A DNA stretch of 51,822 bases from Candidatus Heimdallarchaeota archaeon (lineage in GTDB: Archaea > Asgardarchaeota > Heimdallarchaeia > Hodarchaeales > Hodarchaeaceae): NCBI GenBank assembly GCA_019057635.1, contig DXJL01000149.1, positions 1 through 51,822 of the forward strand, in the 5' to 3' direction. Both the position numbers and the translations under genes were made by a program. This document shows, piece by piece, positions 17,225 to 42,212 of the stretch (the stretch's first letter is position 1; every line of letters starts with the position of its first letter). The notes beneath the pieces are model-generated. The model worked only from the letters and a program-made list of their open reading frames with translations. It had not been told where the DNA came from and searched no databases.

Positions 17225-18850
17225 TTAAATGCTTTGTTTAAAAGTATCTATTATATGTCTTTGTGATTTAGAGAGATTATAATGGTCAAGAATAAACGCA
17301 TCCATTTGAGTTATTTCCTCATTTCCCAAACATATTTCTCTCTCTATCTTCATTTCTGCTATTTCTTGTTCCTCTAATGCAGAAAATGGTAATTTAATGG
17401 GAAGTTGCTTCAAATAGCTGATAGGTATTTTTGGAAATATTTTCTTTACTGTTTGAAACTTATGGTTAAGATAAAAAGTTAATAACGAAGAGTTTAGTAT
17501 GATTTCTAGATGTTTTAAATTGAAATGAGACCATTGTGGCTTGAAGGTAATTATGTACACATCGCACACACAAAATAGCATGGTTGGATCATAAACTGAT
17601 ATAAGTTCACGACCAATTCTTCGGAGGAGCAATTTTGGTTTCATATACATTGATTTGTCTTTGAAAATTGATTTTCTGTTCGAATCGAATTCAATATATC
17701 GCCTATCTCCTTTTATGGAAAATTTACTGATATTTCTCCCAGCTATCACTGGTACAGACTCCTGTGTAGAAGGTGTTTCGTTAGTGAAGGTTGACTTAAA
17801 TCCTAACTCGATTCCACGCGTAATAGATGCGATATCCTTTAGGAAAAGCGCTCCTGTTTCCATAATCTCAAGAATTTCAGTGATCTCTGTAGCCAGATCA
17901 GGTAAAATGTACCTGAACTTCTGATCCATAATCATTCTTTGGTCATTCATTTTAATCTGAGAGAATCCACCTTCAACTGAATACTTACTGAATTCAATGA
18001 TGTGGGAAAGACCCTTCTCGGCATCAGTTTTCTTATATCCCATTACAATGCATGTTTCAACAGATACTGAAGGAAATACATTGTCATCCAACATGATGAT
18101 TTTATTGATGTTGAGCTGATTGAGTAATAAATCCCTGAATGCTTGATATCGAAAGTTTGTAGTAAAGTTATTCGGAATAAGGAAGATTAACGCTCCTCCT
18201 TCTCGTAATAGATGTATTGACCGTTCAACAAATAGAAGATAACTTTCTATTTCGGGATCAACACCTTCAAAAATTCTTCTATAGATATTTTTCTCTTCAG
18301 AAGTAAATGAAATCCCAAAGGGGGGATTTCCTATACAAATATCATATCCCTCTTTAGTGTTAGGTGCGGACCATTCATAAAACCAATGAAACGCATTTTT
18401 AACTAAATTTATGTCTGGTTGATTAATGTTAAGATCATCGAAGAAATAACGAGTTAATTTTTCTTCTGTATAATAATTCTTCATGGTTTTAGGAGGTTTA
18501 ATATACCCAATTAACGCATTTCCAGTTTTAAACGAAATTTCAATATCCTTACTTGTCGCTAATTTCCTTTTTTTTGACTCACATAAATTAATAGATTCAT
18601 TATTTATATCTAAACCATGCAAAATTAGTTTAAAATTTATTAGATCACTTTCTCTGATGTTGTTCTTTTGTTTCAAAATTTCAAATAAAAATCTACCATC
18701 TCCAACTGAATTATCAAGGATGCTGATACTTCCAGAACCAAGTGGTTGGTTCAGAATGTCGTTAATAAAATCGAGAGAGAGATTGACCATTAATTTTACA
18801 ATTTTTTCTGGTGTTGGGATCGCTCCTAGTGGTTCTTTTCCTTTTTTCAC
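17225..18850 (-). CDS. Eco57I/TaqI-like (gamma class) amino-DNA methyltransferase with TaqI_C-like specificity region
   Basis: Motif I LDNSVGDGRFL, motif IV GNPPF, LFVERSIHLLREGG, KPKLLLRRI, ILNSSLLTFY. Confidence 0.9.
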   Translation of the reverse strand: MKKGKEPLGAIPTPEKIVKLMVNLSLDFINDILNQPLGSGSISILDNSVGDGRFLFEILKQKNNIRESDLINFKLILHGLDINNESINLCESKKRKLATSKDIEISFKTGNALIGYIKPPKTMKNYYTEEKLTRYFFDDLNINQPDINLVKNAFHWFYEWSAPNTKEGYDICIGNPPFGISFTSEEKNIYRRIFEGVDPEIESYLLFVERSIHLLREGGALIFLIPNNFTTNFRYQAFRDLLLNQLNINKIIMLDDNVFPSVSVETCIVMGYKKTDAEKGLSHIIEFSKYSVEGGFSQIKMNDQRMIMDQKFRYILPDLATEITEILEIMETGALFLKDIASITRGIELGFKSTFTNETPSTQESVPVIAGRNISKFSIKGDRRYIEFDSNRKSIFKDKSMYMKPKLLLRRIGRELISVYDPTMLFCVCDVYIITFKPQWSHFNLKHLEIILNSSLLTFYLNHKFQTVKKIFPKIPISYLKQLPIKLPFSALEEQEIAEMKIEREICLGNEEITQMDAFILDHYNLSKSQRHIIDTFKQSI

Positions 18851-18855
18851 CTTCC

Positions 18856-20598
18856 TTATTCCCCCTGCAAAATTATCTGTTTTTCATTTTGAGATAATTC
18901 ATAAAAATTGAAAACAATTTCGTCAATAATGGACCTAACATAATACATCTTTGAATATTTACCATTTATCTCTTCGACGTAAGATTTATTGACTTTAATT
19001 CCTATTTTTTTTTCTAGCCATGGTAAGTCGTCTACATTTCTTGTTCGAAAAAACCTATCGAGCTGCTTTATTAACTTAAAGAGATTCCTTGTATGATTTT
19101 TTTGATTAAAGATTGACTGATTAACCATATTATCTAGTAGTTGTCTTAGCTCTTTCCCTTCCATAAGATACAATTTGAAGATTTCTCCAATCACGAAGAA
19201 TTGGTCTATGTTTGATTCCTGTTTTACAGTAGAACAAATATCAGAGAGCTGACCTATTTCTATCATATTCTTAATTTTGCTACGGAAGTCAGAATTCGAC
19301 TCACCATTCAAACGAGGAATTATCAATTTATTTAAATATGGTTTATCTAAATCTTTACTTGTTACAAATCGTTTAGTATATATTGCATGTTGTAACCACC
19401 AAGTTATAAACTTAGATTGAAGTAAAGCACCATATGCATGAATATAATTGGACGAGGAATAAGGAGGAATTATATTAATAACAGTTTCATGAGTAAGGTG
19501 GACACCAGAGGAATCAACCCAAATTGGAAGATCTAATTGGAATTTTGGTTTGGTTTTATAAGCAATTATGCGTTGTCCAATGATTTTAGGTTGCCTTAAT
19601 CTTTTAAACTTAATTTCAGGAACATTTTCAGTGACATAATTACGTTCTGGTAATAAAAACCCGTGTGTAAGCGAAACTTTTTCTATTAATGGAGTAGATA
19701 CGTCTTTTACACGAAATTGACTACTTAAACCACGAAAAGCAGTCCATTCAATTCTTCTGTGATCTTTCAGAAGCTTTTCCATTAGTTTCTGCTCTGAGGG
19801 AGTTACACCCACTAAAAAATTATCGAAACGAATCGCATTTTGAGTCTTAATCTTGGAGACGAAAACTAATTTCTCTTTCTCAGAATCCCATATCCCAGTT
19901 TGGAATTCTAAAGATGGAGAGATTTTTTGTAGTGTAAGGGCGACTTGCTCTTGCAATTGACCAGAAAATTGATTTGCTAAATCATATACTTCTAAAAGAC
20001 GAACCTGAGTTAGACATAGTTGTCGAAACATTTTCCATTTATTAGAGTAAATAAAAGGTTTAGGTAAAATAAAAGAAAGGATACCCCTGTCTTTTAAGAG
20101 GTTAATTGACTTCAGTACGAAATATAGAGCAGATTCTGACGGAATATTCTCCTGGGTTTCTTTGGGACGCAGCTTTCTTATTTTATCCCACTCTTGTGGA
20201 GAATATTTTGCATGGTGAGGAGGATTAGATATGATTAAATCGTATTTTCTTCCATTATTCTCTGTATCAAATTCAGTCAGAAAATTTTTGAGATGAAAAA
20301 CAACAGTACATGTATCATCATTTACAGAGTTAATCACTAATGATTTAGCTTTTGAGAGCGCAGAAGGGTCAATATCTAAAGCATCGATATTGATAGAACT
20401 AAATCTATTCTTTAATATCTGAATAAGTGTTTTGCAAAAAATTCCTTCTCCAGCTGATGGATCTAACACTAAGAGAGTATCATTATCTCTTGGTTCATCA
20501 AGATAATAGATAATGTTTCCAATTATTGCCTGTACAATGTTTTCAGGTGTAAAATATTGCCCTTTTTCACTCTGAGTACTTGACAAGCTGAGTCCCAA
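18856..20598 (-). CDS. Gamma-class amino-DNA methyltransferase with variant NPPH motif IV
   Basis: GQYFTP, VLDPSAGEGIF, YDLIISNPPH, LLKDRGILSFILP, PKIIGQRI. Confidence 0.88.
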   Translation of the reverse strand: MGLSLSSTQSEKGQYFTPENIVQAIIGNIIYYLDEPRDNDTLLVLDPSAGEGIFCKTLIQILKNRFSSINIDALDIDPSALSKAKSLVINSVNDDTCTVVFHLKNFLTEFDTENNGRKYDLIISNPPHHAKYSPQEWDKIRKLRPKETQENIPSESALYFVLKSINLLKDRGILSFILPKPFIYSNKWKMFRQLCLTQVRLLEVYDLANQFSGQLQEQVALTLQKISPSLEFQTGIWDSEKEKLVFVSKIKTQNAIRFDNFLVGVTPSEQKLMEKLLKDHRRIEWTAFRGLSSQFRVKDVSTPLIEKVSLTHGFLLPERNYVTENVPEIKFKRLRQPKIIGQRIIAYKTKPKFQLDLPIWVDSSGVHLTHETVINIIPPYSSSNYIHAYGALLQSKFITWWLQHAIYTKRFVTSKDLDKPYLNKLIIPRLNGESNSDFRSKIKNMIEIGQLSDICSTVKQESNIDQFFVIGEIFKLYLMEGKELRQLLDNMVNQSIFNQKNHTRNLFKLIKQLDRFFRTRNVDDLPWLEKKIGIKVNKSYVEEINGKYSKMYYVRSIIDEIVFNFYELSQNEKQIILQGE

Positions 20599-20613
20599 AA
20601 ATCGTATTTTTCG

Positions 20614-22578
20614 CTAGGAGCTGAGATTTAACATAGCTTTAATTTTCTTCGCAGTGAAAGTCTTACCAGTAAGTACATTGCCACTCATTATAATAAGACG
20701 ATGTTTGTTTTTCCTTATTCTTAATAGTAAATCCTTCAGTATCTCATCGTAATCGTCTGATCTCGTGGATAACTCAACCACTTGACTACTACTAGGAACA
20801 CGAAGGGAATTCATATATGAATCTATTAAACTTTCATAACGGTTATAAATTATGATATCTGCATCACTTTTAGTAAGAGATTGCTCTTCTTGACTCCTAG
20901 CATCGAAATTCAATTTGAGATCAATTTTTGATGTACTAGTATGTAGGAATATTGGATTAAAAGCTCTAAATTTCTTAATTAATGTCTCCCTATGAGTTGG
21001 ATGTGATGGAGAGTTAAGATTAGTTCCGTCAAAAATCACAATATTGGATTTATTACGACGAAGAAGGCAAGATACCAGCCATATTGCGAGAAGATATGTA
21101 TGAGCACTTTCCCATGAAGAATAATCATGTAGATTTTCACGGTATAACTTTCGAACATGATCGGTTGAAATGATAGTAACCCTCGGACTTTTAGATGAGG
21201 TGCATAGGCTTAAAACTTTTTTAATATTGTCGAGAATTGTATATAGCTCTTTTTTAGAATTGAATGACGGTTTCACTTCCACTTGTTCTCGTAACAAATC
21301 CAAACAGATACCTATAAATTCACGTTGAGCAGATTTTGTTTTGTTAATATTTAAATGGGTAACGACCTCAGTTCCATCAATTTTTACATCCTTGAGATAA
21401 GTTGGTCTTTGGGATTCACTCCTTCTTCTTATATCAGCAAACAATGCATCATTAGGGAGGGGTTTGTTTCCAAGAATTTTCCCCTTAGCATGGTGAAATA
21501 GTAAGAAATCTTCAAGGAATTTAGGGGCAATGCCATAGAGTAACCGCCTTATCAAATAATTCTTGTATTCCTCCTTATTATCATCGAGAGAATATGGTAA
21601 AGGGATTTTATGAATTGATATTAGATGTATTATCTCATCTATGCGCTTGTTTGGAAATTTAAGCCTTTTGAGAATACGAGTTAAGAAATTTTTATTTAGA
21701 TCTGGAAGGAGGAAGGATGAATTAGAAGGGATGGCAGATAACTGATGAAAAAGAACAGAATATCGGAGATTTATTGATGATTCATTAGTTAAATCATCTA
21801 AAATACGCAAAGTAATCTCAAAACGAGATAAATTTATTGAAGGTAGAATATTCTGCATTAATTCATCTTTATATTCAGGTATTAGATGTTTCAGAAGATT
21901 GGTGGAATTTAGAGATCGAATTGCTTGCAGCCAATATAGCCCACCCATTAATTTATGAAATTCGGTTTCAATTCGCTCTTTTGAAATTTGGTCAAAGATG
22001 TGTAAATGCCTTGGTACCGCAGCAAGGGATGATTCCTCAACAGAATATCCTAATTGAGAAACAAATCTGAATATTCTGATTAATCTGAGGCCATCTTCCT
22101 CTAAACGAGCATCAGGGTCACCAACCAAACGTAAAATTTTATTAACAATATCAGAACGTCCATTGTAAGGATCTGTAAAAAATTCAGTAATGGGATCATA
22201 TGCAATTGCATTAATTGTGAGATCACGTCGAGCAAGATCCTCTTCAATATCAGTTACAAATTGAACATGGGATGGACGACGACCATCTTCATATTCCCCT
22301 TCGACCCGAAAAGTTGTAATCTCTATTGAAAGATTTTTAAATAGAAGAGTAACCGTTCCGTGTTGTATACCAGTTGGAATTACCTTGAATTTCTTAAATA
22401 ACTCCATAACTTCAGATGGAGATGCGTCTGTTGCAATATCCCAGTCATTTGGTTGAATTTCACCTCTTAGAAGATCACGAATTGACCCGCCAACAATAAA
22501 TGCCTTATATCCTACGGAAGAAAATTTGTGACAAACCTCAAGAATTTCTGCAGGAAAGTGACTTGCGGTGAATTCCAT
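20614..22578 (-). CDS. cca: Class II CCA tRNA nucleotidyltransferase fused to a C-terminal P-loop kinase-like domain
   Basis: VGGSIRD, DWDIAT (DxD), EITTFR, flexible loop YEDGRRP, RRDLTINA, EDGLRLIR (EDxxR), SKERI; Walker A GNVLTGKT at the C-terminus. Confidence 0.88.
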   Translation of the reverse strand: MEFTASHFPAEILEVCHKFSSVGYKAFIVGGSIRDLLRGEIQPNDWDIATDASPSEVMELFKKFKVIPTGIQHGTVTLLFKNLSIEITTFRVEGEYEDGRRPSHVQFVTDIEEDLARRDLTINAIAYDPITEFFTDPYNGRSDIVNKILRLVGDPDARLEEDGLRLIRIFRFVSQLGYSVEESSLAAVPRHLHIFDQISKERIETEFHKLMGGLYWLQAIRSLNSTNLLKHLIPEYKDELMQNILPSINLSRFEITLRILDDLTNESSINLRYSVLFHQLSAIPSNSSFLLPDLNKNFLTRILKRLKFPNKRIDEIIHLISIHKIPLPYSLDDNKEEYKNYLIRRLLYGIAPKFLEDFLLFHHAKGKILGNKPLPNDALFADIRRRSESQRPTYLKDVKIDGTEVVTHLNINKTKSAQREFIGICLDLLREQVEVKPSFNSKKELYTILDNIKKVLSLCTSSKSPRVTIISTDHVRKLYRENLHDYSSWESAHTYLLAIWLVSCLLRRNKSNIVIFDGTNLNSPSHPTHRETLIKKFRAFNPIFLHTSTSKIDLKLNFDARSQEEQSLTKSDADIIIYNRYESLIDSYMNSLRVPSSSQVVELSTRSDDYDEILKDLLLRIRKNKHRLIIMSGNVLTGKTFTAKKIKAMLNLSS

Positions 22579-22675
22579 GGTCAGACCTCATCTGTATACT
22601 TTCGAATTGAGGAAAAGGACTATTAAAAGCTATAATATCTTCCATTGATTAACTAAACTTTCTGAGAGATGATAT

Positions 22676-25297
22676 TTGCAACAGCTATCTCAAAACCTAA
22701 AAGAGCTTTATGTATTACTTCTTCAAGAAGGACGCTTCCTAAATTGGTCGGATGCAGTCACCTTTGAGGTAGCTTTAAATTCACTTATTAAATTCCTCTC
22801 CTTATTTTATTACCAACCATGGAACAAAATCGTAGAAGAGCCATTTTCTTCATTGAAAAAGACAGAAAAAAGGATGATTTTTCTCGAAAAATTTTTTCAT
22901 TCATTTGAGTATTCTGCAGGTGGAAATGAAAAGCAGGCTGTAGAGAAATCAATATTTTATCTATCAGCTCCTACACCGAAAGAAAAACAACTACTAAAAA
23001 GTATTCCAGGTGAAGATTGGAATCAAGTGATTAATCTTCTAGAGACTTATACATTCAACTCTGTGGAAAAATTCCAAGAGTCTACTAACCAAGAGGGTGA
23101 AATAACCCCTGAATTTCTTTCATTCTTTGCAGAAATTGTCATAAATGAATTTGAAAAAGATTTTTCAGTTTCACCTAAAGTATCAAGTCGAAAAACAAAA
23201 GGAGTATACTATTCACCTTGGAAAATCATCAGAGAATTGGCCGATAATCTCATATCTGATGACAGAACTCAGGTAACGGTTTTAGACCCTAGTTGTGGGA
23301 CTGGTTCATTTTTACTTTATACGACAGAAAGAATTTATCAAAATCAACAGAAATACGAAGGCAATTATGAAGATAATCCATCAAACATCGTCAAAAACTT
23401 CATTTACGGTGTAGATAAATCAAGTTCGGGTATATTAGTTACAAAATTAAGATTACTTCTCTGGATTTTAGGTAAAGATCCCGAATCAAATTTAGATACT
23501 GAAACACATATTTTTTCAAATATTCGAGAGGGAAACTCACTTTTTGGCTTTATTAATGAAAAATTTAATCCGACTATTGATTTAATTAATTATTTATCCC
23601 AGAATATTCAGAAAATAGGGGTAAAGAGTTCCAAACTTGTTGAAATGGAAAAGTATCTGAATAAAGATTGGGTTATTTGCTGTGACATACTCAAATCTGT
23701 TTTAACAGAGAGAGATTTCGTAATTAGAGCAAATATCGATTCTTTAATGGAACAGGTAAATAAAGATCTTTCAAAGATATTTAATAATGCATACGTTCAA
23801 TTTTTATCAACCTTAACGAACCAAACTATGAATTTGAAGTCCCTATATAATACAAAAGTAACCCAACTTGAATTTTTTCATTGGGGATTGATGTTTCCCG
23901 AGATTCTGAGACAAGGTGGATTTGATATTTGCTTGGGTAATCCTCCATATGGTCGTTCAATCCTTTCAGTGACTGAGAAAAATATCTTGAAGGCGTCCTA
24001 CAGTTCATGTAAGGGCTCTAACGCGAAAAAAATTAGTTTAAATGCAGCTGGGGCATTTATTGAACGTTCAATAAAACTCCTTAAACCAGAAGGTCGTTTG
24101 GCATTTATTCTCCCATTTTCAATCCTTAGGGTTGAAGAATTTGAAAGAATTCGTGATTATATTCTAGAAAAAACCGTGATAGACGAAATTCACGATGAAT
24201 CTGCAGCATTTCAAACTGTAACACTAGAGATGTGTTCATTAATCTTAACCAAACAACAAAAAAACGACTATCCGATTTTTATTAAACCTAGAAAGGGTTT
24301 AAAACTAGTATCACAGGTAAATAAATCGGTTTTTATGAACTACAAACGGTTTATGATATATTATGACACAAATTGGCAGATAATTACTCGAAATGGGGAA
24401 TTTTCTCAAATAATGGGAGATTATGGAGTAGATCATAGGATTGTTAAGAAAGATTTGAAACGGAATTACACTCCTTCCATGGAATATGTAGTTCCTTTTC
24501 TTCATTCAGGAAGATGTGTCACTCGTTATGCACTGAATCCTAATTATTTTCATTGGTCAAAATCGAATCATAAGAATCCTAGATTTATCGACTATCTTGA
24601 GAAACCTAAACTTGTTTGTACTGCAATTGGTAACGAGTTTCGGGTAGCTTACAAACCTAGGGGAATCGTACCAGGAACAAATGTCTCAATAATGGAAATT
24701 TCAAACCCTCAACATGATTTCTTTCCTCTAATGATTATACTCAATTCTTCTCTAATTAATTATTTATTAAAACGATATATATTGAATTATTCTCATCTAA
24801 CGGTCTATCTACACAAATATTATACACAATTAATACCAATAAAATATCCATGGTCTTATGAAAAGGAATGGAGAATAATTGGGACCTATATATCCTTGTT
24901 GAATCAGATACAACAATTGAACCTTGGACTCTCCTACCAGAAAGAATTGAAATTTTTGGGAGAAATTACAGAGCACATGGTTTACCATTTATATCTTCCA
25001 GAAATTTATACAGATTCAAAATTGACGTTAACATCCATACTTCAGGATTCCCTTCTTGAAATCCAATTTGAGGATTGTATTGAGGCACTCTTATCCCCAA
25101 CTAGCGATATTGAGGAGATTATAAAGGAAAAAAATTCTGATGTAATGATAGCTGAAGCAAGAATACTGGCTGTCATTAGTACATTGAAAACTGAATCAAT
25201 TCTTAATATCCTCTCTCAATCCAAGCAACTAAGAGAAAAATCGGGAATAACGAAAAAAATACTCCTTGATACAACACCAAAGATGATTCGAACATAA
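22676..25297 (+). CDS. Eco57I-like amino-DNA methyltransferase (no recognisable nuclease domain)
   Basis: GVYYSP, VLDPSCGTGSFL, IYGVD, FFHWGLMFPEI..GGFDICLGNPPY, ILNSSLINY. Confidence 0.9.
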   Translation: MQQLSQNLKELYVLLLQEGRFLNWSDAVTFEVALNSLIKFLSLFYYQPWNKIVEEPFSSLKKTEKRMIFLEKFFHSFEYSAGGNEKQAVEKSIFYLSAPTPKEKQLLKSIPGEDWNQVINLLETYTFNSVEKFQESTNQEGEITPEFLSFFAEIVINEFEKDFSVSPKVSSRKTKGVYYSPWKIIRELADNLISDDRTQVTVLDPSCGTGSFLLYTTERIYQNQQKYEGNYEDNPSNIVKNFIYGVDKSSSGILVTKLRLLLWILGKDPESNLDTETHIFSNIREGNSLFGFINEKFNPTIDLINYLSQNIQKIGVKSSKLVEMEKYLNKDWVICCDILKSVLTERDFVIRANIDSLMEQVNKDLSKIFNNAYVQFLSTLTNQTMNLKSLYNTKVTQLEFFHWGLMFPEILRQGGFDICLGNPPYGRSILSVTEKNILKASYSSCKGSNAKKISLNAAGAFIERSIKLLKPEGRLAFILPFSILRVEEFERIRDYILEKTVIDEIHDESAAFQTVTLEMCSLILTKQQKNDYPIFIKPRKGLKLVSQVNKSVFMNYKRFMIYYDTNWQIITRNGEFSQIMGDYGVDHRIVKKDLKRNYTPSMEYVVPFLHSGRCVTRYALNPNYFHWSKSNHKNPRFIDYLEKPKLVCTAIGNEFRVAYKPRGIVPGTNVSIMEISNPQHDFFPLMIILNSSLINYLLKRYILNYSHLTVYLHKYYTQLIPIKYPWSYEKEWRIIGTYISLLNQIQQLNLGLSYQKELKFLGEITEHMVYHLYLPEIYTDSKLTLTSILQDSLLEIQFEDCIEALLSPTSDIEEIIKEKNSDVMIAEARILAVISTLKTESILNILSQSKQLREKSGITKKILLDTTPKMIRT

Positions 25298-25412
25298 ATT
25301 ATGATCTATTTGACCTATAGACAAGTTCAATATTTCTTTCTTGATGTATTTCTATCTTTTACCCATTCATTTACCTTCACCGACTAAAAGGACTGATTTG
25401 GTAAAACTGGGA

Positions 25413-25470
25413 TAATACGTGAGTAATACGAAAAATAATACGTCAATTTAGGTAATCTCCCATTTAGGTA
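25413..25470. repeat. Short direct repeats: TAATACG x3 and ATTTAGGTA x2
   Basis: TAATACG at 25413, 25424, 25436; ATTTAGGTA at 25446 and 25462. Confidence 0.55.
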
Positions 25471-25571
25471 GACCTGCGGCAAGAATCTAAGAAATATTTA
25501 TAAAGTTAAACATTTAGTATAATTGTCACTCAGTTTTTTATCTTTAGAAATTAGTACAAAGAGGCTAACGG

Positions 25572-25739
25572 ATGCAAGACCCAATTGATGGTGCACAACT
25601 CCTCAAGGGATTAACGCAAGAAATGACTGATTCTCAGAAATCGATTATCACACAATTAGTTCAGGGTCAAAATGTTTTTTCTAAATATTCAATTTCTGAC
25701 GCTCTAACTGAACTTGATGATCTTTTTGATTCAAAATAA
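25572..25739 (+). CDS. Small acidic hypothetical protein (55 aa)
   Basis: GAGG SD at 25561, then ATG; MQDPIDGAQLLKGLTQEMTDSQKSIITQLVQGQNVFSKYSISDALTELDDLFDSK; below the ORF track cutoff. Confidence 0.5.
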   Translation: MQDPIDGAQLLKGLTQEMTDSQKSIITQLVQGQNVFSKYSISDALTELDDLFDSK

Positions 25740-25933
25740 TTGATTGGTTGAAGTGTAAATCACGCATAATATCTGTACACAACTTGTGTCGTTCTTCCTC
25801 ATTTCTTGATGATGACATATTACCAGAACTCGAAATTCAGAGTAACAAACCCATGACTGAATTTATAGATTATGGGTGATATTTGAAATCGTCATATTTG
25901 GATAAGTGAATAGTCTGTAGGCGGCCCTTTTCA

Positions 25934-26115
25934 ACTCTCATTAACCTTATCTGCCGTTCTGAAAGACTTACCCAAATAAGACAGCTAAGAATAATGATTC
26001 CCAACCATCTTTGGAGCTATTCTTCCTGATTCATAGACGCATGCCTGCTTAGATGCAGGTCTTACCGCCTCTCCACAGGCGTTTAAGGTCTCCGCGGAAC
26101 TCTCGGCGACCTGAT
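25934..26115 (-). ncRNA. Putative TnpB omega-RNA (reRNA) scaffold plus flanking guide
   Basis: GCCGAGAGTTCCGCGGAGACCTTAAACGCCTGTGGAGAGGCGGTAAGACC...ATGAATCAGGAA resembles conserved tnpB 3' ends; hairpin CCTGC-N6-GCAGG; locally GC-rich. Confidence 0.6.
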
Positions 26116-26383
26116 TGACTAGGAACGTTTCTTCTTTTAAACTTAGGTAACTCTCTGATCTAAATCAAAGTTGCTTCTTTCCTGTTATTCTCGGATCAAG
26201 AGGTCAATTAGTTTCTCGTTTTGACCAGCATCTCATGAGATCGGTCTACTACTCTGCTCTTTCCATATTTTCCGCTCTCTTCCCCTTTCCTTTGCAATAT
26301 TGCTTCTATTCTCTTCCCTTTTCCCTGGAATATCTGTCCATATTTGTCTCTATTTGTCCACAGAAATATTCACTATTGTCAAC
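25954..26383 (-). mobile_element. Non-autonomous IS607-family derivative (MITE-like) with tnpB tail remnant
   Basis: Right end GTAAGTCTTTCAGAACGG, left junction TTTAGGG|TTGAC with three 10-bp tandem repeats, and a TnpB-like tail VAESSAETLNACGEAVRP. Confidence 0.65.
26331..26360. repeat. Three imperfect 10-bp tandem repeats (TATYTGTCYM)
   Basis: TATCTGTCCA TATTTGTCTC TATTTGTCCA. Confidence 0.75.
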
Positions 26384-26421
26384 CCTAAAATTTTAATACT
26401 AATTGATTATTTCCAAGATTC

Positions 26422-30098: not shown

Positions 30099-30878
30099 TT
30101 AATAAAAACCCTCAATGAACGCTCGAACGTTTTTTCCTAACACAGTATGATTATATCCCCCTTCCAGACAGGCAAATCGTCTGTTTTTTCCATAGTCCTC
30201 ACTGAATGACTTCAATAATGTACCTATTGATCGATAGTCCTTTGTTGTGAGGAGCCCCCCCCAATCATCTTCATGTCGGTCAAATCCTGCGGATACGGCC
30301 AAAAAATCCACTTTCCTATGTTGTGCAAGGAAATCTATTAAATTTGAGAGGAATTCTTCAGATGTATTTCCATCACAGGCATAATAAGTGACAAGAGGAT
30401 CGTTTCTAAATATATTATTTGAGCCATCACCAAAATGAAGGTCAAAATCTACTATCAAAGCATTTTGTATTTGCTTGTGCATGCAATAATATCTAACAGC
30501 AATAGCAATATTATTGAAGTAGCAGAACCCCCAATAACCATCAGGAGACGCATGGTGACCTGGAGGACGAATTACAGCAAACATGGGTTGCTGATTGTAC
30601 GCATTTTCCGCAGCTAATAATGCTCCCCCTACAGCCAATAAAGCACTTTGATAAATTTGGTCGTAGTCATTTTGTACACGAGTTGCGTGGTCTTCTGTAT
30701 GGACGAGTAGGACATCTTCTATTGTAGCAGGAGAAGGAGATATAACTGAAAAATCTGATAATTCATTCATAATCGCCTCCATTCGACCAGGTTCTGCAGC
30801 GGGATCAAAAGTGTATTCCAAATAGTAATCTTCATGAAAAATGACTTGTTTATGTATATCCTTTCTTCTTTTTAGCAT
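30099..30878 (-). CDS. Histone deacetylase family protein
   Basis: RPPGHHA, GFCYFNN, DFDLHFGDG, SAGFD, LEGGY. Confidence 0.95.
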   Translation of the reverse strand: MLKRRKDIHKQVIFHEDYYLEYTFDPAAEPGRMEAIMNELSDFSVISPSPATIEDVLLVHTEDHATRVQNDYDQIYQSALLAVGGALLAAENAYNQQPMFAVIRPPGHHASPDGYWGFCYFNNIAIAVRYYCMHKQIQNALIVDFDLHFGDGSNNIFRNDPLVTYYACDGNTSEEFLSNLIDFLAQHRKVDFLAVSAGFDRHEDDWGGLLTTKDYRSIGTLLKSFSEDYGKNRRFACLEGGYNHTVLGKNVRAFIEGFY

Positions 30879-30901
30879 TAATTTGGCTGAGTTGGGAGTA
30901 A

Positions 30902-33247
30902 TCATAATATTGGTTTTCCTAGACGCCATTCAACCTCAAATTTGATTGATTGTTGAATCTGATCCATAAAGTGTGGAGATAATCCCAAATAATCAACGCA
31001 AAGAAGTTGATCCAATTTCATTTGGATTTTCAGATATTTAGTCTTTTCTCCAATTTTTGGAATGTGTAATTCAATTAATTCTTGGAGACATTCTTTTATT
31101 TGGTGTATGGTAGTGTCTGGCATCTGTCTTGGATCAAGTACAAGTAAATTTTGGCATTCACTTAGCGACAACTTCAATGAGCCTAATCCTAAAGTTCTTG
31201 TTCCTTGAATTTCACGTAACAATACACCTAATGATGAATTCATGAATCCAAGTAAAAATTCAGTCCAAACAGGGCTATCTGGCCAAAATCCTATCCATTG
31301 TTTGTCTACATGTAACTCTTGCGTATTATAAGCAACAAATGAACGCAAATAAGTCATATTTGGAATAAGAATTTCTGGTTGAATTTTTGAGATACAATAC
31401 CAAGTTGATTTGCTTTTATTTAGGAAATATGGTCTGGAGAGAATATCATTTTTGATACTATCTAAATAATGCTGTAAATGAACGTCTTTCTCAATGTTGA
31501 TCTCAGGTGGAATAGACAACAGGTATAACGATTTCTGAGGAGCAATTATACTTAAGCTGATAAAGTCTTTTGGTGATTTAGTCATAGAAACTAAGTGTTT
31601 TTGAGAAAGACTAAATTTTTGTACCATATCTTCAGATAAATAGAAATATCTATTAGCTCCAGTTGTAGAACCTAAAGAAAGTTTCCCTAGGTGGTTCAAT
31701 AGACAGAATTTGTCTTTATTGGCTAAAAGAATATGATGGAGAAAGAAGGGGGCCATGGTAAAATAATCAATTCTCATTATTGGAAATCGGTATGTGTTAT
31801 CTCGAGAAAATAAGAGATGGGAATTTGTAATTCGACTCATTCGATATTCATTATTTTCAAAAGATTCGATATTTATATCCTTTAATTGAGTTGAACGTAA
31901 TTGTTCCACAGAATCAATATATTCAGACAATGGTTCGTCGATCTTTAACAATTCAGACAATTTTTTCTTCCAGACTAACACTGTAGTAGAATTTACTTCA
32001 TCAAAATGTTCAACCTTATGTCCAATAATAATATTCGTTATAATTTCTGCTTTTTTCCATGGCTCTGAAGGAAGCTCAAGAATTAAATCAATGTTAAAGT
32101 ATTTTTCAAGGAGAAGGGAATTTATAGGAGATAGGAATCGTGAAGAATACCAAGATCGTGATAAAACTAATCCTAATACTCCGTTTGGGTTAAGCTTAAA
32201 CATCAACATTATCCAAAAGTAAAAATAAAGATCTGCTTTCGAATCAACTTGCTGATTACTTCCTGAAAAGATTGATTGATATTCTGGAATAGTAACAAGT
32301 TTTGCAATAATTTTCTTCTTATCTATATTATGATGACGAATATAAGGAGGATTACCAAGACACAAATCAAATTTTAGATTGCTTGGCTCTTCTATAAGCA
32401 GAAAATTCTCTTTTTTAATATTTACAATTGATTCTACAAAGTTTTTCATCTCTCCAACAGAAATTGATTCATAAGATACAACTTTTGTTATCCAGTGATG
32501 TAGAAAAACTAATTTTGTTAAAATAACATGAGTAGGATCAATATCAAAACCATATAAATTGGAGAGAAATTTCTGGAAATATTGCTGGTATTCGTAATTG
32601 GAAATCGAATTCTTAATCTTGAAGATTATGGTGCTATAAATTTCTATTATTTCATGCAAAAATAACCCAGTGCCGCAGCTTGGATCAATTATAGACGTAG
32701 ATGACAACTGGTTTACAAAAGTTTTGTAAATATCTTGGTTCTCTTGTGAAATTTTTCCCTGAAAGATAATTCGATGTATTAAAGATTGATCAATTACTAA
32801 AGCATTATTGAGCATCAAGTACTTGTATAGACTGAAGTAACAGATGAACTGAACCTGATTTTGTGGGGTAAAGAATAAACCTGTATTTTTTTTCTTCTGG
32901 GTTCGTGTTAACGTTTCATAGAGATAGGAGAGTCGATAAATATCAATTCCTTCCTTACTTACTCCGTGAATGACCTCCCACCACCAATATGTCTCCTTTA
33001 GGTAATCAATAATAAGAGTATTTTCCTTTACAGCTAAAGAATCGAATATGAATCTCATTCTAGGTAGCGATTTCCCATTAGATAACATATTTATAAAAGA
33101 AGTTTTATCAGGAGTATCATTTAGCTCTGAAATGGGGAAAACATAATAAAATGTAAAGACACATCTGAAAAACGGGAGTAGGTCTGGATATTTAATAGAT
33201 TCTTTTTCCAGACGTTCCAAAAATTCCTGAAGTAATAAGTCCATCAA
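30902..33247 (-). CDS. Eco57I-like amino-DNA methyltransferase
   Basis: GLFFTP, IIDPSCGTGLFL, LYGFDID, FDLCLGNPPYIR, ADLYFYF, TGANRYFYL, LGLGSLKL. Confidence 0.9.
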   Translation of the reverse strand: MMDLLLQEFLERLEKESIKYPDLLPFFRCVFTFYYVFPISELNDTPDKTSFINMLSNGKSLPRMRFIFDSLAVKENTLIIDYLKETYWWWEVIHGVSKEGIDIYRLSYLYETLTRTQKKKNTGLFFTPQNQVQFICYFSLYKYLMLNNALVIDQSLIHRIIFQGKISQENQDIYKTFVNQLSSTSIIDPSCGTGLFLHEIIEIYSTIIFKIKNSISNYEYQQYFQKFLSNLYGFDIDPTHVILTKLVFLHHWITKVVSYESISVGEMKNFVESIVNIKKENFLLIEEPSNLKFDLCLGNPPYIRHHNIDKKKIIAKLVTIPEYQSIFSGSNQQVDSKADLYFYFWIMLMFKLNPNGVLGLVLSRSWYSSRFLSPINSLLLEKYFNIDLILELPSEPWKKAEIITNIIIGHKVEHFDEVNSTTVLVWKKKLSELLKIDEPLSEYIDSVEQLRSTQLKDINIESFENNEYRMSRITNSHLLFSRDNTYRFPIMRIDYFTMAPFFLHHILLANKDKFCLLNHLGKLSLGSTTGANRYFYLSEDMVQKFSLSQKHLVSMTKSPKDFISLSIIAPQKSLYLLSIPPEINIEKDVHLQHYLDSIKNDILSRPYFLNKSKSTWYCISKIQPEILIPNMTYLRSFVAYNTQELHVDKQWIGFWPDSPVWTEFLLGFMNSSLGVLLREIQGTRTLGLGSLKLSLSECQNLLVLDPRQMPDTTIHQIKECLQELIELHIPKIGEKTKYLKIQMKLDQLLCVDYLGLSPHFMDQIQQSIKFEVEWRLGKPIL

Positions 33248-39815: not shown

Positions 39816-42212
39816 CTATAGTCTTTTCTTCTTGAGGAGGAGGACGATAATGGCTATACCCGAAATACCCCATATCCACTCAAATCCAGGAGCCCCACTA
39901 CCGCCTAAGTCCGGTTCCTTTGTTAATACTAAGATTTCCGTAGGAATTCGTGTTAACGTGAGATTAAGGGATGATAGCTCGCCAGAATACAACGGAGTAA
40001 CCCATAAATAAAGATACACAAAGTCAGCATCAGTAGCTGCCCCAAAACCAGTTGTTACATTACCAATTTCTGTATAATCGCTCGGCATATCATACCTATC
40101 TGTAGTAAGATACGAAAACTCGTAGCTATTAGAATGAATTCCTTTAATATCTTGAATGATGACTGGTTTAGCATTTAATGTGAAATTTGTGAAATGAAGT
40201 TCAATATCTGTCCAGTTCATCCACTCGACAGGGACCTTGATCATCCATTCCCTTGAAAGTGTCGTATTGATCAATAGATTTGTACTATTCACATCATCAA
40301 CAAACCAGATATCTTCAATATATGACATATACTCCATATCAGCAGTATAGATATCGAAGTAACAAAAACTCTCAAAAGGTAGCGTTTGAGTTCCATTATC
40401 AAGATAAGAATCAACTGTTACAAAATATCTACCTTCTGTACTTGCAAATGTTTTTGGAAGAGAAATTGAAAATCGATTCTGAGTATAATCATTACTATCA
40501 GAGTAAATTTTGCTGAATTGGTCATGTTGGAGGAGAATTGCTTCTCCATTCACAACACCAAATACATTAATGGATATATCATGATAAATTGTCTCCCCAG
40601 AATGTTGAGCCACCAGATCATTACTTGCATTAAAAGCTACACCTAGTATACCATGCCAAAAGAGTTGTTTTTGATAGAAGAGTGTATTATATTCAAAAAC
40701 ATGACCAACCGTAGCACCAGGAAGATCATTCCTAGCATCAAAGGTGAGAAGATCTGAATCAAGATAAGCATTTGGAGACCAAATATTGTATGGTGGTGTC
40801 ATATCACCAGCGTCTTTGAATTCCTGTGAAACCAGATCATTGTTTTTTGAAACAGTTATTTCAAACCAAGCTTCTTCAGGTAAAGTATTCTCAAGAAGCA
40901 AATAAGCCGAAGATTGATAGAGAAATAAGTTTGTAACTTGTGTATTAGTATTTAGGATATCAAATGTTGATGTGACATAAGGTTGGCTAGGAGTGCCAAA
41001 TATATCTTGAAGTTGAACACCTTTCGACTCAGAAGTAATCTGAACCTGAACACTTGTAGGAGTAGAAACATTAAATTTGAAAATTGAAAAATCATTCGCT
41101 CTAAGCCTTCCAGGGTGTAATACACCTGGGTATAAAGGTTCGGGAGAGAATTTTTCAATACCAAATAAATATCGGGCGGTACCATCATGAATGATAAGCA
41201 TATACTCAGGACGCTTTGAAAATTGAGCGACATTTAGTCCCAATGACCCTCTATAGACAGTATTATTCTCTCTTGGGACGAAATGAGCAGTTGTAGTCCC
41301 ACCTCGAATATTCTCAAAATGTTGGAAAAAGATATCTCCTGCTTCAGGGGTGTATTTATACCAATTAAAAGTAAGCATAGCGTCATCAATTTCTTTTTGG
41401 GTCAACTGTGAATCAGGCGTTCCTACAATCTGTAGGTGTATTTCATCATCTATATCTAAGACTTCAGGTTTAAAGGTAGAAGTCTCAATATTGAAAAAGA
41501 GTTTCTCATCAGTCGGTTCAATTAAGAATACATATTTTCCCTTCTTTTCTGCAATTAATAGGAAATATTCATCATCTCCCTCAACATATTGAAAATATTG
41601 AACAGGAGCTCCATTTGGATCAAGAATTATAACTTTTTCATAACGTGATCCTATACCAGGGTCAGGAAATACATTTAATCGAAGTGATAAAGGCCCAGCA
41701 GAGCCAACCGCAATTTGTAAGTAGAAATTAAAATCTGGATCTACTTCAAACAATTCCTCAGTGTTATCATCAATTGCTAGAGCTGTGTGATTAGTTGAAA
41801 CCTGAAAATCTCCATAGGATTCGGAAGATACACTATCAAAAAGGAGCCAGCTAGTTTTACTGTAGTCAACTGTTCCATCGGTTGTAAAGGGTGAATATGA
41901 AAAAGGATAATTGATTGGAAAAACATTTGTTGCCTCAGTAAGGTCTGGAACTGAAAAACTCTTAATTGCACCATTTCTAATATTTCTGTGTGATATATTA
42001 ACGGGACGAGTTGAAGACAGAGTTACACTCGGCATATCAGTTGATGGAACGAGAGCTACAGCTTTTCTTTTATGATCCATGGATAAATCCACGGAAACAG
42101 ATTCACTAGCATCTGAACTAGCTCCAATTGCCATCGGAGTTACAAAAGAAGTAGAAAAAATGAGTAAAATCATGAATGTAATAATTTGCTTTAAATTTCG
42201 GAAACGTTTCAT
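39816..42212 (-). CDS. Large secreted cell-surface glycoprotein with PGF-CTERM-like sorting signal
   Basis: Signal peptide, beta-rich repeats, many NxS/T sites, C-terminal APGFEW-TM-KKKRL. Confidence 0.85.
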   Translation of the reverse strand: MKRFRNLKQIITFMILLIFSTSFVTPMAIGASSDASESVSVDLSMDHKRKAVALVPSTDMPSVTLSSTRPVNISHRNIRNGAIKSFSVPDLTEATNVFPINYPFSYSPFTTDGTVDYSKTSWLLFDSVSSESYGDFQVSTNHTALAIDDNTEELFEVDPDFNFYLQIAVGSAGPLSLRLNVFPDPGIGSRYEKVIILDPNGAPVQYFQYVEGDDEYFLLIAEKKGKYVFLIEPTDEKLFFNIETSTFKPEVLDIDDEIHLQIVGTPDSQLTQKEIDDAMLTFNWYKYTPEAGDIFFQHFENIRGGTTTAHFVPRENNTVYRGSLGLNVAQFSKRPEYMLIIHDGTARYLFGIEKFSPEPLYPGVLHPGRLRANDFSIFKFNVSTPTSVQVQITSESKGVQLQDIFGTPSQPYVTSTFDILNTNTQVTNLFLYQSSAYLLLENTLPEEAWFEITVSKNNDLVSQEFKDAGDMTPPYNIWSPNAYLDSDLLTFDARNDLPGATVGHVFEYNTLFYQKQLFWHGILGVAFNASNDLVAQHSGETIYHDISINVFGVVNGEAILLQHDQFSKIYSDSNDYTQNRFSISLPKTFASTEGRYFVTVDSYLDNGTQTLPFESFCYFDIYTADMEYMSYIEDIWFVDDVNSTNLLINTTLSREWMIKVPVEWMNWTDIELHFTNFTLNAKPVIIQDIKGIHSNSYEFSYLTTDRYDMPSDYTEIGNVTTGFGAATDADFVYLYLWVTPLYSGELSSLNLTLTRIPTEILVLTKEPDLGGSGAPGFEWIWGISGIAIIVLLLKKKRL

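Follow-up and report, generated by a model that had tools for sequence, protein, structure and literature searches.

A stretch of 51,822 nucleotides (positions 1-51,822 of contig DXJL01000149.1) from a Candidatus Heimdallarchaeota archaeon (assembly GCA_019057635.1; Hodarchaeales, Hodarchaeaceae), hereafter the window, carries four long, uninterrupted open reading frames (ORFs) at positions 17225-25297. One encodes a predicted CCA-adding enzyme fused to a kinase domain, which we call CCA-kinase, and the other three encode predicted adenine methylases, MT1, MT2 and MT3. MT1, MT2 and CCA-kinase are co-oriented, with gaps of 5 nucleotides (nt) between MT1 and MT2 and 15 nt between MT2 and CCA-kinase, while MT3 is divergent across 97 nt (Table 1). 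The gene order, the orientation, the three gaps and the NPPH, NPPF and NPPY motifs are as given in a preliminary description of this DNA, which had proposed a new system wiring a tRNA-end enzyme to nuclease-less methylases. Here we describe the cluster as a clade-specific, vertically inherited block and not as a demonstrated multi-enzyme system: an accessory tRNA-end enzyme is probably flanked there by DNA N6-methyladenine (m6A) methylases of the persistent orphan kind, all passed on together within Hodarchaeales.

Table 1. Features of the CCA-kinase/methylase cluster, in positions of the window.
Feature	Positions	Strand	Description
MT1	17225-18850	-	541-amino-acid (aa) predicted gamma-class N6-adenine methylase, motif IV NPPF, TaqI_C specificity domain
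MT2	18856-20598	-	580-aa predicted methylase, DPSAGEGIF (motif I), NPPH (motif IV), TaqI_C-like specificity region
CCA-kinase, whole gene	20614-22578	-	ORF
CCA-kinase residues 1-440	21259-22578	-	predicted class II tRNA nucleotidyltransferase, complete with head, neck, body and tail
CCA-kinase residues 441-654 and stop	20614-21258	-	predicted circularly permuted AAA_33/PNK/PSTK-like P-loop kinase domain
Walker A GNVLTGKT, residues 633-640	20659-20682	-	from the translation; 14 residues before the C-terminus
Divergent intergenic region, 97 nt, AT-rich	22579-22675	.	back-to-back TATA-like blocks; presumed bidirectional promoter
MT3	22676-25297	+	873-aa predicted MmeI/PglX-like methylase, DPSCGTGSF (motif I), NPPY (motif IV)

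Judged by families, motifs and fold, the N-terminal part of CCA-kinase is a complete class II CCA-adding enzyme. The Pfam PolyA_pol head scores 118.8 bits (cut-off 23) and PolyA_pol_RNAbd 38.9 bits (cut-off 22). The NCBIfam equivalog PRK13299 scores 258.8 bits, which is under its cut-off of 290, and the NCBIfam model for the 'multifunctional CCA addition/repair protein' matches the head domain only (5.6e-20). An AlphaFold2 model of the whole protein, built on 17 orthologues, has a predicted local distance difference test (pLDDT) of 87.9 and a predicted template modelling (TM) score of 0.80, and Foldseek aligns it with 1miv_A over 450 columns (E 1.6e-20, target TM score 0.78). The residues of the GGSIRD, DWD, RRD and EDGLR motifs are invariant in the 17 orthologues. 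The preliminary description had read the protein as a CCA enzyme plus a kinase; the head and RNA-binding matches, together with the C-terminal P-loop kinase discussed below, agree with that reading.

Close homologues of the cluster proteins come, by their source names, from Hodarchaeales (Heimdallarchaeia, Asgard), which agrees with the Heimdallarchaeia named in the preliminary description. The host genome (3.19 Mb in 214 contigs, 91.6% complete, archaeal small-subunit rRNA not found) has two class II CCA genes, namely CCA-kinase and, on another contig (C163; L002 1405-2568, +), a 387-aa CCA2 paralogue without the kinase. A class I (archaeal) CCA enzyme was not detected in this 91.6%-complete genome. 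Because of the second gene and the missing class I enzyme, CCA-kinase is best described as accessory, a paralogue of the class II (bacterial-type) enzyme that, to judge from its sequence, has kept all catalytic and tRNA-binding parts. How bacterial-type enzymes took the place of the archaeal CCA enzyme in Hodarchaeales is the topic of a 2026 preprint (10.64898/2026.05.29.728689). According to its main text, CCA2 is the only CCA enzyme of Hodarchaeales, A and B paralogues occur in several genomes, and a CCA2 of Hodarchaeum adds CCA in vitro; that main text is silent on which paralogue this was, and the words kinase, methyltransferase, fusion, synteny and neighborhood do not occur in it. The second CCA2 gene seen here agrees with the A and B paralogues mentioned there.

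The C-terminal domain of CCA-kinase is, from profile and model comparisons, a circularly permuted P-loop kinase of the AAA_33/PNK/PSTK type, with the Walker A motif as its last element. The canonical order, in which strand 1, the P-loop and helix 1 stand at the N-terminus of the domain, is not found; the unit lies at the C-terminus instead. GNVLTGKT satisfies the Walker A consensus GxxxxGK[ST], and G633, N634, V635, L636, G638 and K639 are invariant in 17/17 orthologues. In the domain as a whole the invariant residues are D473-H-x-R476, F516-D-x-T-N520, R561 and G633-K639. D473-x-x-R476 follows the first sheet strand and presumably corresponds to the catalytic Asp-x-x-Arg of PNK.

Modelled on their own, residues 396-654 have a pLDDT of 86.7. 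Foldseek found no match for this kinase-only model at E<=0.001, as expected, because Foldseek aligns in sequence order and the domain is permuted. VIA-align, which scores every representative chain, matches it to almost nothing but P-loop kinases. At the top stand PSTK (3a4l, Z 8.4, root-mean-square deviation 3.1, 134 aligned), Kti12 (Z 8.3) and 6PF2K (Z 8.2), and further down the Clostridium Pnkp kinase (Z 7.3), T4 PNK (Z 6.7) and the Trl1 kinase (Z 6.7). These alignments cover model residues ~67-230 and start at target residue ~24-40, that is, past the P-loop of the target. CCA-kinase would thus share with the AAA_33/PNK/PSTK/Kti12 kinases the fold (Z 6.7-8.4), Walker A and the FDxTN strand, but has the strand-P-loop-helix unit at the C-terminus where they have it at the N-terminus. 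It should be noted that a Z near 8 is middling for VIA-align, and a sequence-profile test of the permutation was used as well.

In that test, a profile of the kinase domain was compared with 1.84 billion representatives and matched 33 proteins at E<=0.001. Eight of them, at E<=1e-10, are all members of the CCA-kinase family itself or fragments of it. In 18 of 24 weaker matches the last 30 positions of the profile, which hold the P-loop, fit the N-terminus of the protein, directly before the segment that fits profile positions 71-205. Pfam finds AAA_33 in seven of eight weaker matches scanned (six whole-domain, P0238 partial) and no family at all in P0245. Among the CCA-kinase family members AAA_33 is found in 7/17 (best E 1.6e-05), and the protein of the window is not listed at E<=10. 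Taken together, the swapped order of the profile matches and the structural alignments argue that the domain is a circular permutant of an AAA_33/PNK-like kinase.

The permuted order is common to three other proteins outside the CCA fusion (P0237, P0238 and P0245). P0238 and P0245 are small stand-alone permuted kinases, one of 211 aa in which Walker A stands at residue 182, the other of 209 aa in which it stands at residue 189; four collection scans for their gene context found nothing. In P0237, with 1535 aa, the permuted kinase comes after MIB_HERC2 repeats and a HAD phosphatase of the PNKP type, and this fusion provides one independent hint that permuted kinases may act on polynucleotide ends. 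In the searched literature there is no description of the CCA-kinase fusion or of a permuted PNK-like kinase, and the CCA-adding enzyme with a permuted kinase is newly described here.

MT1, MT2 and MT3 are, by score and by motifs I and IV, assigned to the gamma-class N6-adenine methyltransferase family. The Pfam scores for Eco57I (cut-off 25.3 bits), N6_Mtase and TaqI_C are 73.4, 54.7 and 82.9 bits for MT1 and 79.4, 69.9 and 37.4 bits for MT3, and those for Eco57I and N6_Mtase are 48.9 and 46.6 bits for MT2. Motif IV lies at residue 175 in MT1, 125 in MT2 and 422 in MT3. Among the orthologues of MT2 and MT3, motifs I and IV vary little or not at all, and NPPH is kept in 13/14 MT2 orthologues. 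MT2 and MT3 and, where present, MT1 are very divergent paralogues with ~25% identity; hhalign gives a probability of 99.2% for MT2 against MT3 over 430 columns that include the catalytic and specificity regions. Against the PDB, the MT2 profile matches M.BseCI (7e-23) and CamA (9e-17), while the MT3 profile matches BsaXI, TaqI and PglX/BrxX. DNA is the presumed substrate, since the specificity domains are of the TaqI_C type and the nearest solved relatives are all DNA methylases.

In MT3 the methylase core is accompanied by a helical spacer at the N-terminus, a TaqI_C specificity domain and a tail that is again helical. MmeI_Mtase is found in 14/16 MT3 orthologues, and a similarity of residues 1-175 to the MmeI_hel spacer (Atlas score 0.91-0.94) can be taken as a lead only. 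Beyond its own family, the next relatives of MT3 are Type IIG proteins with HSDR_N (PF04313). MT3 itself is without HSDR_N, and no nuclease family is found in 16/16 MT3 orthologues at E<=1, so MT3 looks like a Type IIG/IIL descendant minus the nuclease.

The specificity domains are the best-conserved parts of MT2 and MT3. The target recognition domain has a mean pairwise identity of 0.70 in MT3, with 67 of 170 columns invariant, and of 0.60 in MT2, compared with 0.46 in the MT2 catalytic domain. Such conservation points to a single fixed target throughout the clade and away from the arms-race diversification of restriction-modification (R-M) systems.

No nuclease, HsdR/HsdS, BREX or DISARM family was found in the four proteins (Pfam, NCBIfam and PADLOC) or in 10 neighbouring ORFs, in line with what the preliminary description had stated. 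PF04313, PF20464 and other nuclease families are absent from MT1, MT2 and MT3, and none of the three has the nuclease fused to the methylase that defines Type IIG/IIL. MT1 and MT2 start directly at the methylase domain (motif X), which leaves no room for an N-terminal nuclease; together with MT3 and its orthologues, they bear out the earlier remark that such a domain is missing. The analogy with PrrC-EcoprrI that had been drawn fails, in turn, on every component. PrrC-EcoprrI with T4 Pnk/Rnl1 is the precedent for tRNA damage coupled to an R-M locus, but here no PrrC-like protein (the anticodon nuclease), HsdR or HsdS was found among the ORFs scanned.

We examined 41 related genomes, and at 16 loci up to 8 kb was fetched on each side. 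Full-length CCA-kinase is present in 17/41, and the linkage that the preliminary description had seen in one genome is present in every relative with assessable DNA. MT2 and MT3 orthologues were found only in genomes with CCA-kinase (MT3 in 16/17, MT2 in 15/17), and the genome without a detected MT3 is the one that has its CCA-kinase copy on a 2.5-kb contig. The linkage of CCA-kinase, MT2 and MT3, hereafter the trio, is real and ancient. As judged from the sequences, the locus is fixed and vertically inherited across the clade, amid housekeeping neighbours. In G018, which already has a full CCA-kinase copy, contig C190 (L030) carries a second, divergent and partial CCA-kinase>MT2 in the same order, with 46% and 40% identity to the proteins of the window; this second copy may reflect strain mixing in the bin.

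MT1 is the variable member of the cluster, with an orthologue in 5/13 related loci that have DNA beyond MT2 (L033, L034, L035, L044 and L045). Six relatives (L036 5232-6152 (-) and L037-L041) have an ORF of 302-321 aa without a Pfam family after MT2, in the place of MT1. The gap between CCA-kinase and MT2 is -23 to 51 nt in 12/14 loci, which fits an operon, yet is not distinctive. The region between CCA-kinase and MT3 is 94-180 nt long across 16 loci, its AT-rich blocks are kept within subclades, and it is presumed to be a bidirectional promoter.

The genomes that bear the trio form one clade, and its co-occurrence therefore counts as one evolutionary event. Five genomes labelled 'same genus' without the trio (G004, G006, G007, G011 and G017) are distant, with the pyridoxal phosphate (PLP) enzyme PALP at <=41% identity; the F420-type oxidoreductase that neighbours the cluster was found in one of the five, and a class I CCA enzyme is likewise present in one. 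All five being distant, they contain no informative empty site.

The methylases have to be seen against the rest of the genome. In its 3.19 Mb there are 15 Eco57I matches that correspond to 13 genes of 541-934 aa, all with an intact NPP[YFWH] and with a mutual identity of at most ~28%, and a Pfam nuclease domain was found in none of them. Several of the 13 are packed tightly against unrelated genes. Trio-bearing relatives have 14-29 Eco57I matches each and the sister family 22-33, while three other Heimdallarchaeia families have 1-9. The lineage is thus crowded with such genes, and a methylase as a neighbour is not rare. Short gaps are not rare either: 11/18 co-directional pairs elsewhere in the window, counted by hand with nested ORFs dropped, have gaps of at most 40 nt, and gaps of 5-15 nt are ordinary in this genome. 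The searched literature contains no description of the Hodarchaeales methylase expansion.

A fourth Eco57I-type methylase, MT4 (30902-33247, -; 781 aa, NPPY), lies 5.6 kb from the cluster. It overlaps by 28 nt a co-oriented downstream gene with a histone-deacetylase domain (30099-30929), and the pair is kept in L035, L038 and L040 at 37-66% and 58-81% identity.

The cluster is flanked on one side by genes for a GFO/IDH oxidoreductase, a zinc-ribbon protein, YdjM, phosphoglucomutase (PGM) and an F420-type oxidoreductase, and on the other by genes for the PLP enzyme, a cobalamin adenosyltransferase and an alpha/beta hydrolase. Downstream of MT3 a 55-codon ORF (25572-25739, +) has no second copy in the genome; its protein is 80% and 75% identical in two close relatives, with the DNA ~73% identical, so that a genuine small gene is probable. 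The stretch that separates MT3 from the PLP-enzyme gene also holds a dispersed repeat of ~440 nt (25949-26385), similar to miniature inverted-repeat transposable elements, which has matches of 68-98% identity on ~26 further contigs, several of them at contig ends. This repeat explains why the distance between the two genes is 1.1 kb here and ~0.5 kb in L033. Scans of the whole window for tRNAs and Rfam families gave no match, and a permissive Rfam scan of 25298-26421 gave a single match at chance level. The ORF at 39816-42212 (-), with 798 aa, has no Pfam match at E<=0.01.

In the reading that we prefer, the CCA domain would rebuild tRNA 3'-CCA ends and the permuted kinase would phosphorylate an RNA (tRNA) hydroxyl with ATP, so that CCA-kinase would be a two-headed enzyme of tRNA-end maintenance or repair. 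The kinase would have been gained at the C-terminus, and in it the unit of first strand, P-loop and helix would have been relocated from the beginning of the domain to its end. MT2, MT3 and MT1 would be N6-adenine DNA methylases dependent on S-adenosylmethionine, derived from Type IIG/IIL (MmeI/PglX-like) and TaqI/BseCI-like enzymes, and their specificity would be fixed across the clade, making them epigenetic methylases of the 'persistent orphan' kind; possibly MT2 and MT3 each serve one strand of an asymmetric site. The genes would stay together because of an old shared transcription arrangement, consisting of a CCA-kinase>MT2(>MT1) operon and the divergent MT3, without cross-talk between the tRNA enzyme and the methylases.

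A number of findings weigh against this reading, most of them in favour of a functional module in which CCA-kinase and MT2, with MT3, act in one pathway. MT3 lies divergently next to CCA-kinase in 16/16 loci (the sixteenth is L007, a 2.5-kb contig with the first 122 MT3 codons), and MT2 follows CCA-kinase in 14/14 loci with DNA there (L043 shows only the first 55 MT2 codons at a contig end, while L042 and L007 are too short to assess MT2). The flanks are looser and were both rearranged several times: the F420-oxidoreductase adjoins the cluster in 6/12 loci, and the PLP enzyme adjoins MT3 in 9/14. The internal adjacencies are thus stricter than the flanks, which suggests selection on the trio itself. 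Further, the CCA-kinase, MT2 and MT3 families share the same narrow range, restricted to the clade: they occur in Hodarchaeales-labelled records only, with a sharp drop in score beyond (at the edge of the MT2 family E-values fall from 1.6e-74 to 1e-11). At 12 loci with shorter CCA2 homologues the flanking 1.5 kb contain no methylase, and the kinase-fused paralogue alone has methylase neighbours. The unusual conservation of the specificity domains would also fit one fixed, possibly structured substrate, and the atypical NPPH of MT2, unique among the 13 Eco57I-type paralogues of the genome, could mark an unusual substrate. The role of CCA-kinase in end repair has its own difficulty. RtcB, which needs 5'-OH ends, is present, while neither the 5'-phosphate-dependent RNA_ligase family (PF09414) nor Tpt1/KptA (PF01885) was found in the 91.6%-complete genome, and for these reasons a kinase-then-ligase repair route is not evident from the gene content. 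A module could take two forms. In one, tRNA or RNA ends would be healed by the kinase and the CCA domain and then amino-methylated, for which bacterial RNA repair by Pnkp/Hen1 is a precedent, as it couples RNA-end healing to a methyltransferase; in the other, the methylases would have been repurposed from DNA to structured RNA. A module of either form is the main rival of our reading, but we consider it unlikely. The strict linkage comes from a single clade and a single event, with trio-less relatives too distant for comparison; the TaqI_C/MmeI architecture and the nearest solved relatives are those of DNA enzymes; and the crowding of the genome with similar methylases, several tight against unrelated genes, and its ordinary short gaps make such neighbours unremarkable. 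A complex prediction for the kinase region and MT2 gave a score of 0.00, but was run without controls and has no bearing either way. The linkage and the missing nuclease of the module first proposed stand, but nothing positive was found for its wiring. The specific version in which a tRNA-end repair enzyme works with DNA-type amino-methylases that mark repaired or mature tRNA/RNA, or that couple chromosomal m6A to tRNA maintenance, seems to us quite improbable; if true, RNA repair and methylation would be joined here in a module of a new kind, built on the logic of Pnkp/Hen1 but from entirely different parts.

A cryptic defence function would require that the cluster belong to a tRNA-targeting system or to a variant of R-M, BREX or MADS-like systems, with an effector or nuclease that escapes recognition from its sequence. 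In its favour, the methylases match Type I, Type II, Type IIG, PglX, MAD2 and DrmMI models in NCBIfam and PADLOC, the nearest outgroups of MT3 are the Type IIG enzymes with HSDR_N, and the tails of MT2 and MT3 as well as small neighbouring ORFs are unannotated. The matches are generic and far below threshold, however (in NCBIfam, PglX 63 bits with a cut-off of 500 and MAD2 68 with a cut-off of 720), and PADLOC gives 0 matches for CCA-kinase. Within ~10 kb there is no nuclease, helicase, PglZ or BrxC-type partner and the neighbours are metabolic, so that the partner genes of BREX, DISARM and MADS are missing. Adding the fixed locus, its vertical inheritance and specificity domains that are the most conserved parts of the proteins, we give a defence role very little credence.

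Persistent orphan methylases flanking an accessory tRNA-end enzyme remain, in our view, the best explanation. For archaea, 'persistent' orphan methylases are already a recognised class (PMC10609329). The archaeal groups described there and CamA of Clostridioides difficile (PDB 7lni) have no nuclease partner, a fixed locus, vertical inheritance and conserved specificity domains. The same combination is seen here in the sequences: no cognate nuclease, a vertically inherited fixed locus and a conserved specificity domain. The difference is that here two or three very divergent paralogues bracket a tRNA enzyme, within an expansion that spans the lineage, with 13 Eco57I-type genes per genome. With the MmeI family of Type IIL/IIG enzymes MT3 shares MmeI_Mtase, the Eco57I core and the TaqI_C specificity domain, and with BREX PglX it is colinear over 360 residues (8c45_A), but it lacks the MmeI_N or HSDR_N nuclease and the BREX partners, and its scores are far below the cut-offs.

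For CCA-kinase the closest parallel is the multifunctional class II CCA enzyme of E. coli, which likewise combines a CCA enzyme and a C-terminal domain for processing nucleic-acid ends in one polypeptide. There the added domain is an HD phosphohydrolase, which heals 3' ends, whereas here it is a permuted P-loop kinase. Compared with Pnkp/Hen1, the cluster has no Hen1-type 2'-O-methylase and no ligase domain, and has amino-methylases with DNA-type specificity domains instead.

The 'wiring' of the cluster is so far only conserved synteny, and saying so guards against over-reading it as a new defence system. In the debate on how eukaryotes arose, Hodarchaeales have a central place; the lineage is often placed closest to eukaryotes. 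The CCA paralogue with its conserved permuted kinase offers the tRNA field a definite protein for assays. Beyond that, the cluster makes visible one part of a large expansion of adenine methylases without nucleases. Such an expansion is unusual among prokaryotes and hints that much DNA methylation in this lineage may serve purposes other than defence.

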